Shown: positions 17,688 to 35,880 of the stretch, piece after piece | Layout of the letters: every line of letters begins with the position of its first letter | How positions within the stretch are numbered: the first letter of the stretch is position 1 | NCBI GenBank assembly: GCA_019310825.1 | Contig: JAFDDO010000001.1 | Coordinates: 1-47,507, forward strand | Source of the DNA: Deltaproteobacteria bacterium | GTDB lineage: Bacteria; Desulfobacterota; Dissulfuribacteria; Dissulfuribacterales; UBA3076 | Length of the DNA: 47,507 nt | Reading direction: 5' to 3' | Program-made: the position numbers and the translations under genes | The notes under the pieces: model-generated | The model's database searches: none | Seen by the model: only the letters and a program-made list of their open reading frames with translations | What the model was told of the DNA's origin: nothing

Positions 17688-17987
17688 GATGAACGTCGAA
17701 CATCGAACGTCCAACGTCGAATGAAAAACGAATATCCAATACCGAACATTAAACAGCTATTTCTGTTTCTTTTCACCCGCCTTGATACTCGTAACGAAAA
17801 ACGAACTATTCCATTATTCCTCATGCGGGGCAAAAATCCAAGCCTCAATACCTCCCCCTATAAATTCAATGGGTTGTAGAATTTCCGAGACGTTTAATTA
17901 ACAGCCTTTCTTACATATCATAAGTCTGTTTCTTCATCTTTTCCCATTCAACATTCGATGTTGGACGTTAGATGTTCGATGTTCATC
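17688..17987. repeat. 300-bp element bounded by 36-bp inverted repeats made of GAACRTC heptamers (MITE/IVS-like)
   Basis: Left arm gatgaacgtcgaacatcgaacgtccaacgtcgaatg (17688-17723). Right arm cattcgatgttggacgttagatgttcgatgttcatc (17952-17987). 33/36 positions are complementary and the interior is 228 bp. Confidence 0.75.
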
Positions 17988-24020: not shown

Positions 24021-25778
24021 ATGAGCTTTCCTTATAAAAACAAGAGGATTTTGTTCCTTTTCAGCCTCGCAGGTCTTGTGATCATTGCTACGTCGTCTGT
24101 TGGTTGTTTTTGGCAGAGCAATAATGTTAATAGCGAAGATAACATTGATTCGTCTAGGCTTTCTCAACAACGGGGCAGTGACTACTATTCCCAGCAAAGC
24201 CCCCTGTACAAGGGCATAATTCTTGATAGGACAGGAGCGATATTCGCCGTAAGCCAAAAAACAATTTCTGCCCTAGTAAGGCCTTCCAAGTTGCCGCAAG
24301 TTGATGATTGGGTACCACGGGTATCAGAAATCCTTGGCCTTGATCACCAAACTTTGGCAAACATGCTTGCAGAGGAGCGGGGCGTTATCTGTCTAAAAGA
24401 CGGCATTTCCGTAAAACAAGGCCTGAAGCTCAAAGACATGCAGCTTAAAGGAATAGAAATACTGGAAAAATATAAAAGGGTATATCCTTGCGGTTCACTG
24501 GCCTCTCCGGTTTTGGGTTTTGTCGATCAAGGCGGCAGAGGCCTTGAGGGAATTGAATACACATATGGCAGCCTTTTAAGCCACACTAGTTTGCCACAAA
24601 TTCACGCAGGTGGCCATGAGCTTACGCTTACCCTTGAAAAAAACATTCAGTCATCAGCGGAAAAAGAGCTTGGCAGGCAGATGAAAAGGCTTAAGGCCGA
24701 CAAAGGCTGTCTTGTTATAATGAGTGTTGAAAACGGTGAGATCCTTGCCCTTGCCAGCAAGCCTTCCTGGGACCCGGAACGTTTTTGGGAACTACCTGCG
24801 ACGAATATTACAAATTACTCTCTGCAAGATAATGTTGACCTGATGGTCCTTGCGCCTCTTCTAAACTGGATGTTTGAACAAAGTAAGCTTCCAAAATCAG
24901 AAATCCCGTCTTTGGACGAAATGGCCCACAAGTGTCAATGGGAGATTTTGGGTAAAGGTCTGGTCCTATGGAGTCCCTGGAATGAACAGGAGCTGAAAGA
25001 TATCGTCTCTTATGACGACATGTCAAGGGATCTCTGGGATCTGGGTTTTGGTCAGTCTACAGGTATTGACCTTCCGGGTGAAGGCCAAGGCAGCCTGTCA
25101 TCAACCCTGCCAAGGTCACAGAATTGCTTCTTAGGCCGGGCTATCACAGCCAGTCCGATACAGATTCTCAGGGCCTTCTCTGCCCTGATAAATAAAAATA
25201 TATTGGTGACACCACACGTGGCCCTACAAAGCCCTAATGAATTCCTGACATCTGAGTCTTCTGTGAAGGACCAAAGGCAGTCCAAAATCCCATGGTTAAC
25301 AGAAAAGCTTATACTCAAATTGCGGAAAAACCTCGCGGTCAGAGGAGGACCTTCTCTTGCGAGCATTAGGTGGGATGAACAGTCTGAGCAAATATCTACT
25401 CAATTTCCAGCCCAGGTCACTGCCCTGGGATTCTGGCCCGACAAATCACCCAAAGTAAGTTATATTGTTTTGCTCGACGGCGTAAAAGTTGACCCTCGTG
25501 AACGTCGGGGCACCCTAGGACGATCACTAATAGTAGCGAAACAGGCGGCACAAATACCCTTGAAAAACGAATGGCGAACGGTAAAAAGCCAGGAGACCAA
25601 AAAAGAACTCTCCAGGATGCCAAATCTTAAGGGAAAATCCGTAAGGCAGGCCTTGGATATTCTGCAAGCCATAGGCATTTCCATCAAACTCAAAGGTGTA
25701 GGGACTGTGATCGCACAGAAACCAAGATCAGGAATATCTCTTAATGGTGTGAAGGTCTGCAGCATAACCTGTAAGTGA
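24021..25778 (+). CDS. ftsI: FtsI/PBP3-like class B PBP homologue with C-terminal PASTA domain; catalytic motifs apparently degenerate
   Basis: PBP-dimer signature YPCGSLASPVLGFVDQGGRGLEGIEY and VIMSVENGEILALASKPSWDP, transpeptidase-fold landmarks GFGQSTGIDLPGE and ITASPIQILRAFSALIN, and PASTA MPNLKGKSVRQALDIL...VIAQKP. See the findings for the missing motifs. Confidence 0.8.
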   Translation: MSFPYKNKRILFLFSLAGLVIIATSSVGCFWQSNNVNSEDNIDSSRLSQQRGSDYYSQQSPLYKGIILDRTGAIFAVSQKTISALVRPSKLPQVDDWVPRVSEILGLDHQTLANMLAEERGVICLKDGISVKQGLKLKDMQLKGIEILEKYKRVYPCGSLASPVLGFVDQGGRGLEGIEYTYGSLLSHTSLPQIHAGGHELTLTLEKNIQSSAEKELGRQMKRLKADKGCLVIMSVENGEILALASKPSWDPERFWELPATNITNYSLQDNVDLMVLAPLLNWMFEQSKLPKSEIPSLDEMAHKCQWEILGKGLVLWSPWNEQELKDIVSYDDMSRDLWDLGFGQSTGIDLPGEGQGSLSSTLPRSQNCFLGRAITASPIQILRAFSALINKNILVTPHVALQSPNEFLTSESSVKDQRQSKIPWLTEKLILKLRKNLAVRGGPSLASIRWDEQSEQISTQFPAQVTALGFWPDKSPKVSYIVLLDGVKVDPRERRGTLGRSLIVAKQAAQIPLKNEWRTVKSQETKKELSRMPNLKGKSVRQALDILQAIGISIKLKGVGTVIAQKPRSGISLNGVKVCSITCK

Positions 25779-29918: not shown

Positions 29919-29990
29919 AAAAATTAGTGATTTGGTGATTGAAATGTCTGTGTGTGTCTGTGGCTAATGAATTAATGACTGGGTAATTGA

Positions 29991-31412
29991 GTGGAACTGA
30001 AAGGCAAAAAAGTAACAATACTGGGCATGGGGGTATCCGGCCAGGCAGCTGCCGGATGGATCGTCTCTCAAGGGGCACAAGTCATATGCAGTGACTTAAA
30101 TCCCCTGGAAAAGTGGCCTAAGGGCCTGGCGGGCTGGTGTAACAAAAATGGTGTTGTAATAGAGACAAAAAAACATAAGGTAGAGACCTGCCTCTCATCC
30201 GACCTGATAGTGGTTAGCCCCGGTGTTTCACCTGTAATCCCTGCCCTTGAGGCAGCACGCAGATCCAATATCCCTGTGGTTGGTGAAATGGCCCTCGCGG
30301 CATCCTGCTGGAAAGGACCTCTGGTTGGCATCACCGGCACAAACGGAAAAACCACTACCACGATGCTTGTGGATGAAATGCTAAAAAAGGCCAATGTGCC
30401 TCATGTAAGGGCCGGGAACATTGGAACACCATTATCAGCATTTATTGAAGAACATACTGAGGAAACTATCGCGGTCCTTGAGATTAGCAGCTTCCAATTG
30501 GATTATTTCCCAAGGACCAGATACTTCTCCTTCACTCCTCCAAGGTTCAAGACAACAGCATGGCTCAATCTTGCCCCGGACCACCTTGATCGCTACCAGG
30601 ACATCAAAAGTTACGGAGATAGCAAGGCGGTAATCTATGACTTCCAAGGGCCTGAGGATTGGGCTATCCGCAACATGGACGACAAGGAACTAGAAGCGTG
30701 GAAGTACAGAGGACGTGCTAAAAGGCTCTACTTCGGGATGCTGCGCCCCGGAGTTCCAGGAGCCGGGCTGGACACCTCTTTGAAAAAAATCAACGTCATG
30801 TGGTCTGATAATAAATGGGAGGAATATGACTTAGAAAGCTGGTCCCTAAGGGGTCGACATAATATTGAAAACCTGGCTTGTGCCATACTTATGTCACGCC
30901 TGGCAGGTGCAGGTGCTGGTGCAGTACAGTCTGTTATCCAAAGCTTCAAAGCGGCACACCACAGACTTCAGTTGGTGGTCCAAAATGGGGGCATCGACTA
31001 TTATGACGACTCCAAGGCCACCAATGTTGCATCTGTACTTCGCGCACTGGAGTCCATAGATCAGCCAATAGTGCTCATCGTGGGCGGCCGCGGCAAGGGT
31101 GAAAATTATGCTTCCCTGGCCGAGGCCACAAAAAAGGCACGTATTCGTGGTACGATTGTTATGGGCGAAGAGGCCAAGGCGCTTGAAAAAGTCCTAAGTA
31201 AGGTAGTGCCGGTTATTCAAGTACGTGGAACAAAAAACGGCAAAAAGACTATGAGAAAAGCCGTGGAGGAAGCCACGTCCCTGGCTGAGCCTGGTGATGC
31301 CATACTCCTTTCCCCGGCCTGTTCCAGCTTTGATATGTTCAAAAATTATGAAAAACGTGGCGTGGCCTTTCAGGAGGCAGCCAGGAAATTGTGTAATTTG
31401 GCGATTGAGTAA
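29991..31412 (+). CDS. murD: UDP-N-acetylmuramoylalanine-D-glutamate ligase MurD
   Basis: [22 protein letters not shown], and a C-terminal domain with DDSKATN. GTG start. The last 6 codons and the stop lie in a repeat array. Confidence 0.9.
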   Translation: MELKGKKVTILGMGVSGQAAAGWIVSQGAQVICSDLNPLEKWPKGLAGWCNKNGVVIETKKHKVETCLSSDLIVVSPGVSPVIPALEAARRSNIPVVGEMALAASCWKGPLVGITGTNGKTTTTMLVDEMLKKANVPHVRAGNIGTPLSAFIEEHTEETIAVLEISSFQLDYFPRTRYFSFTPPRFKTTAWLNLAPDHLDRYQDIKSYGDSKAVIYDFQGPEDWAIRNMDDKELEAWKYRGRAKRLYFGMLRPGVPGAGLDTSLKKINVMWSDNKWEEYDLESWSLRGRHNIENLACAILMSRLAGAGAGAVQSVIQSFKAAHHRLQLVVQNGGIDYYDDSKATNVASVLRALESIDQPIVLIVGGRGKGENYASLAEATKKARIRGTIVMGEEAKALEKVLSKVVPVIQVRGTKNGKKTMRKAVEEATSLAEPGDAILLSPACSSFDMFKNYEKRGVAFQEAARKLCNLAIE

Positions 31413-31544
31413 TTTGGTAATTTTAGGAACGGAATTTTAATTTAAAAACGCAGATGTAAGCAGATTGTGAATTTAACTATGAGTCGAGACACACATAAGC
31501 ACAAAACGATCACCAAATTATCAAATTATCAAATTATCAAATTA
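31393..31544. repeat. Inverted pair of octamer arrays (taatttgg / ccaaatta-tcaaatta) bracketing the murD-murG junction
   Basis: Left arm gtaatttggcgattgagtaatttggtaatttt (31393-31424) contains the murD stop. Right arm caccaaattatcaaattatcaaattatcaaatta (31511-31544) encodes the murG N-terminal TKLSNYQIIKL. Confidence 0.8.
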
Positions 31545-32684
31545 GTGGTGGCTGGTGGTGGCACAGGCGGGCATGTGTTTCCCGGAATGGCAGTGGCTGA
31601 GGCCATGGAGTCCTATGGCCGCATAGATATTCTATGGATAGGTACAGGCCGCCCGGTGGAAAAAATGGCGCTTTCAGGACGTAAATGGGCTTACCAAATA
31701 CTGGAAACAAGGCCTTTGCGGGGCTCAGGCCTTGCGGGGACCATACGCTCTCTGGCTGGACTTCCTTTCTCCACGATCAGGGCTTTTTCGTGGCTCAAAT
31801 CATTTAGGCCTCATGTAGTACTTGGTGTCGGGGGATATGTCTCCGGGCCCGTACTTCTTGCAGCGCGTATGCTGCGGATACCTGCAGCCCTCCACGAGCA
31901 AAACCTTATCCCTGGGCTCACAAATCGTTTGGCCTCTAGATTTGCAAAAACAGTGTTTGTGAGCTTTAAAAAAACTGTAAAATACTTCCCAAAAAATAGG
32001 GTAATTTTTACTGGAAATCCCGTACGGAAAAGCATAATTCAATCACAAAAACAAAAATTACCAAATTACCAAATTACCAAATTACCAAATCTTCTGGTTT
32101 TGGGAGGCAGTCAAGGTGCCAGATGCCTGAACCGGCTTGCCGGTTCGGCCATAAAGGTTTTGTGGCAATCCGACTTTCATTTGGAAATTATTCACCAAAC
32201 CGGCAAGCTGGATGTGTCATATGTTGAGAAATTTTACAAGGATGCAAATATTCCGGCCAAAGTGACCCCATTTATCTCCAACATTGGTGAATCCTATTCA
32301 TGGGCAGATCTAGTTATCTGCCGAGCAGGAGCGAGTACTCTGGCTGAACTCGCAACCATGGGGAAGCCATCGATACTCATTCCCTATCCCTGGGCAACGG
32401 AAAGCCATCAGGATGCCAACGCCAGAGAACTGAGTGAAGCCGGGGCTGCCAAATACTTCCTTGAAGGAGAAATCGGTGCTATAAAACTGGCAGGAGAGAT
32501 ACAGTCTTTGCTGGAGGATCCCCAAAAACTCATCAATATGGGAGAAAATGCTCGAAAACTTGAAAAACCCACGGCAGCTGCAGAGATGGCCTCTACACTG
32601 ATAGAGATGGCTGGACATACTTTTTCATATTCTGAAACAGAAACTAATTCATTGAAAGGTTCTATAGTACGTAACCATGTATAA
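31467..32684 (+). CDS. murG: UDP-GlcNAc:lipid I N-acetylglucosaminyltransferase MurG
   Basis: VVAGGGTGGHVFPGMAVA, LVLGGSQGA and GASTLAELA motifs. The start is ambiguous (GTG 31467, ATG 31479, GTG 31545/31548) and none has a clear SD. Confidence 0.9.
   Translation: MNLTMSRDTHKHKTITKLSNYQIIKLVVAGGGTGGHVFPGMAVAEAMESYGRIDILWIGTGRPVEKMALSGRKWAYQILETRPLRGSGLAGTIRSLAGLPFSTIRAFSWLKSFRPHVVLGVGGYVSGPVLLAARMLRIPAALHEQNLIPGLTNRLASRFAKTVFVSFKKTVKYFPKNRVIFTGNPVRKSIIQSQKQKLPNYQITKLPNLLVLGGSQGARCLNRLAGSAIKVLWQSDFHLEIIHQTGKLDVSYVEKFYKDANIPAKVTPFISNIGESYSWADLVICRAGASTLAELATMGKPSILIPYPWATESHQDANARELSEAGAAKYFLEGEIGAIKLAGEIQSLLEDPQKLINMGENARKLEKPTAAAEMASTLIEMAGHTFSYSETETNSLKGSIVRNHV
32055..32090. repeat. Tandem octamer array AAATTACC x4 in frame in the murG interdomain linker
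   Basis: aaattaccaaattaccaaattaccaaattaccaaat encodes KLPNYQITKLPN. Confidence 0.85.
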
Positions 32685-35038: not shown

Positions 35039-35880
35039 AAATTAGAAGGCCCTCTTCAGAATTCAGGTCTTCAGTATGTAGCTCCGGCTCGCGGGACAAA
35101 TCTGCCAAACCGGTATTTTCCTTGTCGTGGTCTATCCACCCTAAAATATTGGTTGGCTTAGCCATAATGTGCATTGGCTTTGTCGGCTTTTTTGTATGTC
35201 GATATTGGGCATGTCAATCTGATCTTTTCAGGATTTGTCAAGTTCTGGTGAAAGGCTGCGATCATGTAACAGAAGATGAGATTTTGCAACTGAGTGATGT
35301 GACCGCCCAGGACAATCTGCTGTCTCTCGATCTGAAATCAATTGCAACGTCCATAGAGGCGCATCCCTGGATCCATGCCGTTGAAGTTAAGAAAAAATTG
35401 CCGGATCACCTAATGATTAAGATCAAAGAACGTACGCCGGTAGCCTTATTGAACTCTGACAAAATGTATTTGGTTGATGAACAAGGTAAAATTATCGATA
35501 AGCTTTTAACGAAAGAGCGTTTTTCTCTCCCAATCATTACAGGAATTGATCCTAAAAACATTATAGATCACCAAATCAACAAATCAACAAATCAACAAAT
35601 CCAAAAGGCCATGGAATTAATATCCATGGCAAGCAAAGGCACAAGAACTCTAGGTGTCAACAATGTTAGCCAAATAGACATAGCCAAAAGAGAAACTTTA
35701 GTACTCTATACATCTGACAGCGCTATTCCTTTTTATTTTGACACTAAAAATCTCAGCGCCCAATTCAGTAAGGCGGAAAAAATCCTATATCAACTCTATC
35801 GTTCAGGAATATATAAAAAAGTAGCTAAAGTTGAGCTGGATTACGGCCCTGGCCAGGCCCTAGCCAGTCTGAAACATTAG
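35035..35880 (+). CDS. ftsQ: Cell division protein FtsQ (POTRA domain)
   Basis: ATG overlaps the murB stop (ATGA). TM helix, then POTRA (VLVKGCDHVTEDEIL...IEAHPWIHAVEVKKKLPDHLMIKIKER), in the position upstream of ftsA. Confidence 0.85.
   Translation: MKIRRPSSEFRSSVCSSGSRDKSAKPVFSLSWSIHPKILVGLAIMCIGFVGFFVCRYWACQSDLFRICQVLVKGCDHVTEDEILQLSDVTAQDNLLSLDLKSIATSIEAHPWIHAVEVKKKLPDHLMIKIKERTPVALLNSDKMYLVDEQGKIIDKLLTKERFSLPIITGIDPKNIIDHQINKSTNQQIQKAMELISMASKGTRTLGVNNVSQIDIAKRETLVLYTSDSAIPFYFDTKNLSAQFSKAEKILYQLYRSGIYKKVAKVELDYGPGQALASLKH
35569..35602. repeat. Tandem octamer array CAAATCAA x3-4 in frame in ftsQ
   Basis: caccaaatcaacaaatcaacaaatcaacaaatcc encodes HQINKSTNQQIQ. Confidence 0.85.

Follow-up and report, generated by a model that had tools for sequence, protein, structure and literature searches.

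STRR repeats are said to have been described by Mazel et al. in 1990, and the Rickettsia palindromic elements (RPE), reportedly described by Ogata et al. in 2000, are said to be palindromic, 100–150 bp long and of conserved consensus. Long simple sequence repeats (LSSR) have units of 5–11 nt, according to the summary of Mrazek et al. 2007 that is given in PMC4679880. The TAACTGA repeats of marine Beggiatoaceae (MacGregor 2015, PMC4679880) comprise 169 direct sets and one indirect set; they are intergenic, and a post-transcriptional role has been proposed for them. The GGGNATC heptamer repeats of Xanthomonas and Nostoc (Rehm et al. 2015, PMC4692102) are G-rich and have been explained by G-quadruplex formation; an enrichment of repeats near N-termini appears in the same paper as a cited finding.

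The locus considered here lies in a window of 47,507 nt (contig JAFDDO010000001.1). Its source is a methane-seep sulfate reducer of Seep-SRB2 (Ca. Desulfomithrium, GTDB UBA3076), and MurG relatives at 81–89% identity belong to Seep-SRB2 metagenome-assembled genomes, for which the names Ca. Desulfomithrium and g__UBA3076 are in use (PMC10553843). A literature search on Seep-SRB2 in combination with tandem repeats found no paper. The two octamer arrays at the murD–murG junction of this genome are probably a local pair of modules of the STRR/LSSR class that colonised the genomes of one genus.

Arrays at the murD–murG junction

The inverted octamer arrays at the 3' end of murD and the 5' end of murG, which had been noticed in the first-pass annotation, were confirmed from the sequence and with TRF (Table 1). 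The upstream array, complementary to CCAAATTA-type units, is imperfect, with two exact units only (65% matches, score 34); as inverted repeat I2 it covers 30 nt at 77% complementarity. The last six codons of murD and its stop codon (tgt aat ttg gcg att gag TAA, 31392–31412) do lie in this array, the TAA at 31410–31412. The downstream array was detected by TRF with an 8-nt period, 3.9 copies, 100% matches and a score of 62 (31514–31544), and is a head-to-tail repetition of units within the 5–11-nt range of STRR/LSSR arrays, beyond chance expectation. The 16-mer (TCAAATTA)x2, with up to two mismatches, matched the window six times, the inverted copy counted, as compared with 0.07 matches expected.

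Table 1. Positions in the window of the junction features and of further arrays of the octamer family.
Feature	Position	Strand	Remarks
Small TGATTTGG-type array	29922..29942	+	just after the mraY stop, between mraY and murD
murD, UDP-N-acetylmuramoylalanine-D-glutamate ligase	29991..31412	+	473-aa ORF; Pfam MurD-like_N, Mur_ligase_M, Mur_ligase_C
Upstream array, stop-rich orientation	31394..31425	+	TAATTTGG / CGATTGAG / TAATTTGG / TAATTTTA, 8-nt register
Unique spacer	31426..31512	+	candidate murG starts GTG 31467 and ATG 31479; leader codons VNLTMSRDTHKHKTI
murG	31467..32684	+	start GTG 31467 or ATG 31479; from ORF, Pfam and outgroup starts
Downstream array, stop-free orientation	31513..31544	+	CCAAATTA then TCAAATTA x3; (C/T)CAAATTA x4
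Third array, same family	32055..32090	+	CCAAATTA x4.5; in frame, MurG interdomain linker (KLPNYQITKLPN), just before LLVLGGSQGA
Octamer array, same family	35567..35601	+	CAAATCAA x4.4; in frame inside ftsQ

The arrays are 87 nt apart, and the murD stop is followed after 54 nt by GTG 31467 and after 66 nt by ATG 31479. No second copy of the spacer was found when it was searched with BLAST against the whole genome, and the array pair was therefore excluded as a multi-copy MITE with a conserved core. A scan of positions 31000–32000 turned up neither a promoter nor a terminator consensus in the spacer, and no Rfam family was matched in 31200–31800. Three arrays of the same family had been overlooked in the first pass, namely those in the murG linker, between mraY and murD, and in ftsQ; the ORF carrying the last of these encodes an FtsQ-type POTRA domain and an FtsQ/DivIB C-terminal domain (Pfam). 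The murG product is a GT28 enzyme with the GGTGGH motif, PF03033 at residues 27–164 and PF04101 at residues 209–372.

Distribution of the repeats

In the whole genome, 435 tandem repeats were found, among which periods of 7 (n=115) and 8 (n=55) dominate; after removal of overlaps, the period-7/8 arrays numbered 167. Their most frequent lengths are 31 nt among heptamers and 31–37 nt among octamers. An inverted partner within 300 nt was present for 75 of the 167 (45%) and a direct partner for 19, the majority of the inverted pairs being located in plain intergenic DNA. Outside long ORFs lie 116 of the 167 arrays; in the CCAAATCA family, which counts about 31–43 arrays in the genome, approximately 20 of 31 lie inside long ORFs. 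These are in the stop-free orientation, and about five others, in the opposite orientation, close a long ORF: all forward frames of the octamer are stop-free, and every reverse frame contains stop codons. The ends of the CCAAATCA arrays are stereotyped, (T)CAATCA...CCAAATT(CC), with unrelated flanks. The idea that the terminal ...AAATTA unit in murG is kept by selection for leucine in β-strand 1 was dropped, because CCAAATT likewise terminates modules at other places in the genome. Heptamer arrays immediately adjoin both PF05635 genes of the genome.

All 18 genomes of the genus contained the CCAAATCA family and, save for one marginal match, none of the 22 other genera of the order did, and a reversed CCAAATCA control pattern gave no match; the family thus consists, like STRR/LSSR repeats, of dispersed, lineage-specific arrays of related units. 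The junction was compared in 17 readable genomes of the genus, the window's own among them. All 17 carry arrays there; no arrays were seen at the murD–murG junction of sister genera and other families. Judged from these comparisons, the array sites at the junction are old and genus-wide, and the arrays are confined to one genus.

Upstream arrays of the TGATTTGG type occupy the homologous place in 12 of the 17 genomes. In all five genomes that lack this arm, the murD stop overlaps a murG start or lies at most 4 nt from it. The spacer (31426–31512) is conserved in the 14 long-form genomes. In short-form genomes an ATG follows the murD stop after 3–4 nt, and the arrays lie 3' of this ATG. Leader length is identical in 12 of the 14 long-form genomes and greater by 24 nt, i.e., three units, in the other two; in L022, the three additional downstream units mirror the unit types of the upstream arm of the same genome.

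Reading frame of the downstream array

By comparison with related loci, the downstream array is almost certainly translated and appears to be part of a MurG leader of 22–26 residues. In the murG frame it reads ...TKLSNYQIIKL-VVAGGGTGGH, the final codons (I-K-L) entering the first β-strand of MurG. The N-terminal extension proposed in the first-pass annotation is supported by the outgroup starts and by the position of the Pfam N-domain. The opposite reading, in which the array is 5' UTR only, murG starts at GTG 31545 or 31548 and the open frame is an accident of a stop-free repeat, is improbable. It draws on the presence of a GTG or TTG 6–12 nt before the GGG codons in every genome of the genus and on the lack of an evident Shine–Dalgarno motif before GTG 31467 or ATG 31479; moreover, the open frame through the array is not itself evidence of translation, because no forward frame of the octamer contains a stop. 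However, a start at 31545/31548 would remove the conserved [RK]-[LI] that opens β-strand 1, the strand being encoded as [RK]-[LI]-x-[IV]-[AT]-GGG in the 11 outgroup loci. All 11 have a start at least 27 nt (at least nine codons) upstream of GGGTGGH, and eight of them have no start codon within 12 nt of the GGG codons. Within the genus, starts upstream of β-strand 1 occur only at −87/−75, i.e., before the array (ATG at −87 in L027; GTG lost in L026, with an in-frame ATG 3 nt further on; no ATG at −75 in L025). The Pfam Glyco_transf_28 N-domain match begins straight after the array, position 2 of the domain aligning with residue 27, and β1 covers residues 24–30 in an AlphaFold2 model of low overall confidence (mean pLDDT 45, 11-sequence alignment), which was used for the position of β1 alone and not for calling the leader disordered. 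Both the array-preceding ATG of the short form and the fact that the sole two length changes are each +24 nt also speak against a UTR. These length data bear equally on the proposal that the array is a contingency locus, at which one-unit slippage would put murG into or out of frame and thereby turn it on or off. Its unit length is no multiple of three, and it is placed at a gene's 5' end, where translational phase variation classically resides, as in the Neisseria opa and Haemophilus loci. Against this, murG is an essential gene, no out-of-frame allele was present in the 17 genomes, and the linker array, which varies in length, is found at the same place and in frame in all relatives; single-unit, frame-switching variation among close relatives was not seen across the 14 long-form genomes. 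Phase variation is accordingly very improbable here.

Pairing of the arms and the position of ftsW

The two arrays had also been proposed to form a stem, and this proposal was weakly supported. Pairing of the arms is seen in the minimum-free-energy fold, and the pair is an inverted doublet capable of forming a hairpin, as in REP/REPIN-RAYT systems; the fold of this genome is no better than that of shuffled sequences (z −0.54), whereas the stems of relatives are strong (z −3.8 and −5.5; none of 200 shuffles as stable). A rather unlikely explanation is that selection maintains the inverted arrays as an mRNA element, a long helix in the dcw transcript that hides the murG start until the ribosome that ends murD melts it, MurG then being produced solely together with MurD, or that, in a variant, serves as a site for RNase III processing or for stability. 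The geometry for coupling is present, with the murD stop within a helix that encloses the murG start. In the window, the arm-to-arm duplex amounts to −22.3 kcal/mol, a value reached by none of 2000 shuffled arms (−10.9 ± 2.9 kcal/mol), and the 5' arm carries a G-to-A change that answers a C-to-T change in the 3' arm. The two arms of one genome pair more strongly than arms exchanged between genomes (permutation p = 0.026, indicative only, because the compared genomes are phylogenetically related), and G-U pairs outnumber A-C mismatches by 19 to 6, a count that leans towards an RNA-level constraint but is biased by the folding algorithm and by shared ancestry. The closeness of murD stop and murG start in the five arm-less genomes, taken with the strong stems of relatives, would also fit selected coupling. 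On the other side stand the unexceptional fold of this genome, the loss of the 5' arm in 5 of 17 genomes, and the A-C mismatches that have remained unpurged. Inverted pairing is, besides, a general property of the arrays of this genome, mostly in plain intergenic DNA. The TTA variant behind the apparent compensation is present as well in the linker array, at a distance of 0.5 kb, and this array is the best partner of the upstream arm (−34.0 kcal/mol versus about −22 to −24 kcal/mol with the N-terminal array), and the compensation can therefore be explained by conversion at the DNA level. Canonical dcw clusters have ftsW between murD and murG, and the first-pass annotation had linked the arrays to that position; this link was not borne out. 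Position is all that suggests the arrays to be the scar of a deletion that removed ftsW, an explanation of next to no probability that is refuted by comparison across the order. murD adjoins murG in all 26 compared loci (15 from this genus, two from sister genera and nine from other families), free of arrays outside the genus, and each genome of the order has one SEDS gene, a single-contig, 99%-complete genome included; in the present genome this gene adjoins a PBP2-like gene. On these comparisons ftsW is absent across the whole order and, since the octamer arrays are restricted to one genus, its loss is older than the arrays and unrelated to them, which removes a tempting connection.

Proposed origin of the arrays

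Colonisation by repeat modules, the preferred reading, would proceed with modules of about 31–37 nt, i.e., some 4.4 heptamer or octamer units. At the murD end, the copy oriented as TGATTTGG/TAATTTGG closes the murD frame, inevitably so because the CCAAATCA family has stops in every reverse frame, and supplies 2–8 terminal residues and the stop. At the murG start, the copy oriented as CCAAATCA/TCAAATTA is, as comparison with related loci shows, read through into the leader, and a third occupies the interdomain linker of MurG. At these old, genus-wide sites the arrays would be rewritten in place. A private TTA variant is common to all three neighbouring arrays within 0.7 kb, the inverted one included, which suggests an exchange of sequence among nearby arrays. 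The hairpin potential would stem from the genome-wide habit of inverted module pairs and be dispensable at the murD–murG junction; at most, the hairpin may couple the translation of murG to the termination of murD, since the 5' arm of the helix contains the murD stop.

It is conceivable, though unlikely, that the arrays were set up and are kept by an active, length-ruled process of copying or conversion, by which modules of about 4.4 units (31–37 nt) are placed into fixed sites and sequence is exchanged among neighbouring arrays in either orientation. Such a process is hinted at by the stereotyped ends, the common TTA variant, the mirrored units of L022 and the heptamer arrays beside the PF05635 genes. 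If it exists, essential genes such as murG would carry peptide segments that stem from a mobile or templated process at the DNA level and not from ordinary slippage.

The junction indicates that 8-nt, non-triplet repeats can last as long as a genus does, both within essential cell-wall genes and at either end of them, and contribute stop codons when they run one way and stretches of peptide when they run the other. For the annotation of Seep-SRB2 genomes, caution is advised in calling start codons, in placing C-terminal ends and where assemblies break at the arrays. With natural alleles that have or lack the 5' arm, the junction is a compact test case for paired STRR-type arrays as RNA hairpins, and also for the rewriting of arrays in place.

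Comparison with known systems

With REP/REPIN (RAYT) elements the arrays share short inverted doublets, a possible hairpin at operon junctions and lineage-specific families, but the arms are tandem octamers and not imperfect palindromes, and the spacer is unique; neither a palindromic unit nor a RAYT flanked by copies was found. A link to a Y1 (RAYT-like) transposase was rejected, no 7–8-nt arrays being located near the three Y1_Tnp homologues of the genome. The resemblance to RPE lies in selfish-looking short repeats that stand in frame in conserved genes and are translated in permissive surface or linker regions; unlike RPE, the present element is a tandem array of about 35 nt that has no conserved core. 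The GGGNATC repeats (PMC4692102) have in common with it a preference for about four units, a frequent location within 50 bp of a stop codon or overlapping it, and an occurrence in all functional classes, whereas the CCAAATCA/TCAAATTA arrays cannot form G4 structures and are almost certainly translated. Like the TAACTGA repeats, which are heptamers placed just upstream, the arrays have short units, lie near start codons and occur in a sulfur-cycle bacterium of sediments; they differ in forming inverted pairs and in their predicted translation.

The arrays are a variant of the STRR/LSSR class of repeats already known. They agree with this class in their head-to-tail units of 7–8 nt and in the many dispersed arrays with a sporadic distribution among lineages. 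As to location, the picture is mixed: taken together, most 7/8-nt arrays lie, as in that class, in intergenic DNA near gene ends, and most CCAAATCA arrays do not. The arrays depart from the class in that one octamer family is mostly intragenic and in frame despite a unit length not divisible by 3, and in that nearly half of the arrays form inverted pairs, the pair at the junction spanning genes of an essential operon.

Octamer arrays at the murD–murG junction

The arrays which the first-pass annotation had described at the 3′ end of murD and the 5′ end of murG are confirmed, and its coordinates and translations were found to be correct on re-reading of the sequence; of the two arrays, both of which are present, the upstream one is far less regular than the annotation's title had implied. 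The murD frame ends with ...AAA TTG TGT AAT TTG GCG ATT GAG TAA, the stop codon (31410–31412) being the first bases of the third unit of the upstream array. The downstream array follows after a spacer of 87 nt and is directly succeeded by GTG GTG GCT GGT GGT GGC, which encodes the VVAGGG of the MurG GGTGGH motif. The arrays are inverted copies of each other (30 nt, 77% complementary), their arm-to-arm duplex of −22.3 kcal/mol was reached by 0 of 2000 shuffled arms, and the array 16-mer has 6 matches in the window against 0.07 expected.

Coordinates and units of the features at and around the junction
Feature	Position	Units	Remarks
murD	29991–31412		ORF; Pfam MurD-like_N, Mur_ligase_M, Mur_ligase_C
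Upstream array (5′ arm)	from 31394	TAATTTGG / CGATTGAG / TAATTTGG / TAATTTTA	8-nt register
Downstream array (3′ arm)	31513–31544	CCAAATTA TCAAATTA TCAAATTA TCAAATTA	TRF, 100% matches
Linker array	32055–32090	CCAAATTA x4.5	same family; in frame inside murG (KLPNYQITKLPN)
Short array	29922–29942	TGATTTGG type	same family; just 3′ of mraY
ftsQ array	35567–35601	CAAATCAA x4.4	same family; inside ftsQ

In the ftsQ array and the downstream murG array the first unit carries the family consensus CC, and units two to four have in common a private base at the first or second position (ACAAATCA and TCAAATTA, respectively); judged by these two, it looks as if arrays were homogenised from the 3′ side at constant length.

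Host genome and octamer family

The MurG relatives with 81–89% identity all come from Seep-SRB2 MAGs (E20, UBA3076, FWG174 and others), that is, from Ca. Desulfomithrium (GTDB Dissulfuribacterales, f__UBA3076, g__UBA3076; PMC10553843). The window's genome (2.16 Mb, 235 contigs, 45.9% G+C) contains 435 tandem repeats, dominated by periods 7 (115) and 8 (55), and its top octamer, AAATCACC, i.e. CCAAATCA/TGATTTGG, differs by one base from the murD–murG unit. De-duplication left 167 arrays with 7–8-nt units, with sharp length peaks at 31 nt (4.4 heptamers) and, for octamers, at 31–37 nt; 35 lie wholly within long ORFs, the stop of a long ORF falls inside 16, and 116 are placed otherwise. A partner array within 300 nt is inverted for 75 of the 167 but direct for only 19.

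The CCAAATCA family was detected in every one of the 18 genus genomes (2–149 hits each) and, one marginal hit excepted, was not found in the order's 22 other genera; a reversed control pattern gave 0 hits. Array ends in this family are stereotyped, (T)CAATCA(CCAAATCA)3CCAAATT(CC), and the flanks are unrelated. Three octamers make eight codons, and all three forward frames share one stop-free peptide (PNHQITKS; SNYQIIKL in the window), whereas reading in reverse runs into TGA, TAA or TAG within 24 nt in any frame. This accounts for the orientation bias: about 20 of 31 arrays lie in long ORFs, always in the CCAAATCA-reading orientation, and about five, oppositely oriented, terminate a long ORF. 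Counts vary ~50-fold across the genus, from 2–3 hits (G051, G054, G055, G064) to ~100–150 (G052, G053, G061), and the junction arrays of the low-count lineages are point-mutated and decayed.

Two further repeat contexts were observed. A multi-copy MITE-like element (window 17691–17984; contigs C1:2382–2679, C13:691–924, C15:9598–9840, C48:11050–11244; at least seven more) has terminal inverted repeats of ~75 nt, composed of a (GAACRTC)x4.4 heptamer array and conserved subterminal sequence (…GAATGAAAAACGAATATCCAATACCGAACATTCAACGG / CATAAGTCTGTTTCTTCATCTTTTCCCATTCAACA…), around a variable core that often holds a second, nested heptamer family (AGGCTGA). The genome's only two genes of the 23S rRNA intervening-sequence protein family (PF05635) lie at contig ends (C142:25–342, L043; C46:3–146, L044), and a heptamer array (GCTAACG x5.3 and CCTTCAA x17.7, respectively) is found 30–40 nt from the start of each.

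The junction in relatives

Arrays occur at this junction in every genus genome in which it was readable (17 of 18, the window's among them). In the long form (14 genomes) murD ends in a TGATTTGG-type array, after which come a spacer of 73–127 nt, homologous to that of the window, and ~35 nt of CCAAATCA-type array; the upstream arm is multi-unit in 12 of the 14, the decayed arrays of loci L025–L027 included, is a single unit in L019 and is absent from L020. In the short form (L023, L028, L029) the murD TGA is followed after 3–4 nt by ATG, a CGCAACC heptamer array and two to three octamers. L028 and L029 form the basal branch of the MurD+MurG tree, with L023 falling inside the main group. No arrays were found at the junctions of sister genera within the family (L032, L033) and of nine other families, which are ordinary.

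The spacer of L014, L017 and L024 (= L002, L003, L009) contains a 48–50-nt insertion with a GC-rich hairpin (GCGCCCTYCGGGCG), which stretches the inter-arm loop to ~126 nt. In L024 / L009 (JAYEMY010000180.1) the murG 5′ end and its octamer array are duplicated on either side of an N run, probably as a repeat-caused scaffolding artefact.

The first-pass annotation had also linked the arrays to the place where ftsW is normally found. This link is not supported: murG lies directly 3′ of murD in all 26 loci compared (15 from genus UBA3076, two from sister genera within the family, nine from the order's other families), and the arrays are restricted to a single genus. Exactly one FtsW/RodA/SpoVE gene is present in 65 of 69 genomes; three lack it, and a fragmented one gives two partial hits. 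One is also the number in a genome that is a single contig and 99% complete. In the window's genome this gene comes directly 3′ of one for a PBP2-like transpeptidase, an arrangement characteristic of rodA. The order has thus lacked ftsW for long, and since this lack is order-wide and the arrays are not, the coincidence of sites is not causal. The single SEDS gene per genome stands in a rodA-like context across the order (C39:7848–8879 in the window's genome), and the FtsI homologue of the dcw cluster (window 24021–25778) gives a weak, partial transpeptidase-domain match (50 bits, profile positions 111–192).

Probable translation of the downstream array

In 11 of 11 outgroup loci the MurG frame starts at least 27 nt 5′ of the GGGTGGH codons and always encodes [RK]-[LI]-x-[IV]-[AT]-GGG, which is β-strand 1. 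The Pfam N-domain match of the window's MurG starts at residue 27 (profile position 2), and an AF2 model of low overall confidence places β1 at residues 24–30, the array-coded I-K-L within it. The only start codons 5′ of this strand in the genus, −87 (GTG 31467 in the window) and −75 (ATG 31479), both precede the array. Of the 14 long-form genomes, 12 share one leader length, and L022 and L024 exceed it by 24 nt (three octamers). We conclude by comparison that the downstream array almost certainly belongs to the murG coding sequence, as the first-pass annotation had proposed. The linker array, which varies in length between relatives and always keeps the frame, can only be coding.

GTG 31467 is most likely the start codon, with ATG 31479 as the alternative. 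The −87 start is ATG in L027; L026 has lost the GTG and has an in-frame ATG 3 nt downstream; L025 is without the ATG at −75; and in L019 and L020 the TGA stop of an extended murD frame overlaps the −87 GTG (GTGA). No Shine–Dalgarno motif is visible for the candidate starts in the window.

Proposed RNA stem or exchange between arrays

The proposed stem is borne out in so far as the arms pair in the fold of 31385–31555, but this fold is weak (−28.1 kcal/mol, z −0.54; 57 of 200 shuffles as stable). A selected RNA function of the inverted arrays would be favoured by the stable folds of the same region in L004 and L002 (z −3.84 and −5.50; no shuffle as stable). Arms also pair better with their own partners than when swapped between genomes (permutation p=0.026, the genomes being related), a signal to which the window, L024 and L026/L027 contribute most, and G–U pairs exceed A–C mismatches by 19 to 6 in a biased count. 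In the window a C-to-T change in the 3′ arm (TCA to TTA) is matched by G-to-A in the 5′ arm and looks compensatory.

The TTA variant, however, also occurs in the linker array, 0.5 kb off, which complements the 5′ arm exactly (TAATTTGG to CCAAATTA) and forms a stronger duplex with it (−34.0 kcal/mol) than the N-terminal array (about −22 to −24 kcal/mol); the three extra 3′-arm units of L022 (CTCAATCC CCCAATCA CTCAATCA) match in type those of its 5′ arm. Exchange at the DNA level between neighbouring arrays would fit the arm patterns no less well than would selection for an RNA helix. The 5′ arm is missing from five of 17 genomes, in all of which the murD stop abuts or overlaps a murG start; this could mean that murD–murG coupling is what matters, and it is also a mechanical result of losing the stop-supplying array. 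Genome-wide, inverted pairs lie mostly in plain intergenic DNA, and in only ~5 of 71 does one arm contain a stop and the following gene open from its partner. A selected RNA function is therefore ranked second and considered rather unlikely.

Comparison with known repeat systems

The junction arrays are members of the STRR, the class of long simple sequence repeats whose units measure 5–11 nt (Mrazek 2007, as summarised in PMC4679880). With REP/REPIN, RPE and contingency loci there is partial overlap in features, but defining ones are not matched in any of the three. A preference for about four units and an overlap with stop codons, as in the UBA3076 arrays, were described for G-rich heptamers of Xanthomonas and Nostoc (PMC4692102) and attributed there to G-quadruplexes, which the UBA3076 octamers cannot form. 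The junction arrays represent a novel variant within a known repeat class: relative to published descriptions, the 8-nt unit is translated inside essential genes, the arrays often occur as inverted pairs, and their sites are kept genus-wide while the units are rewritten.
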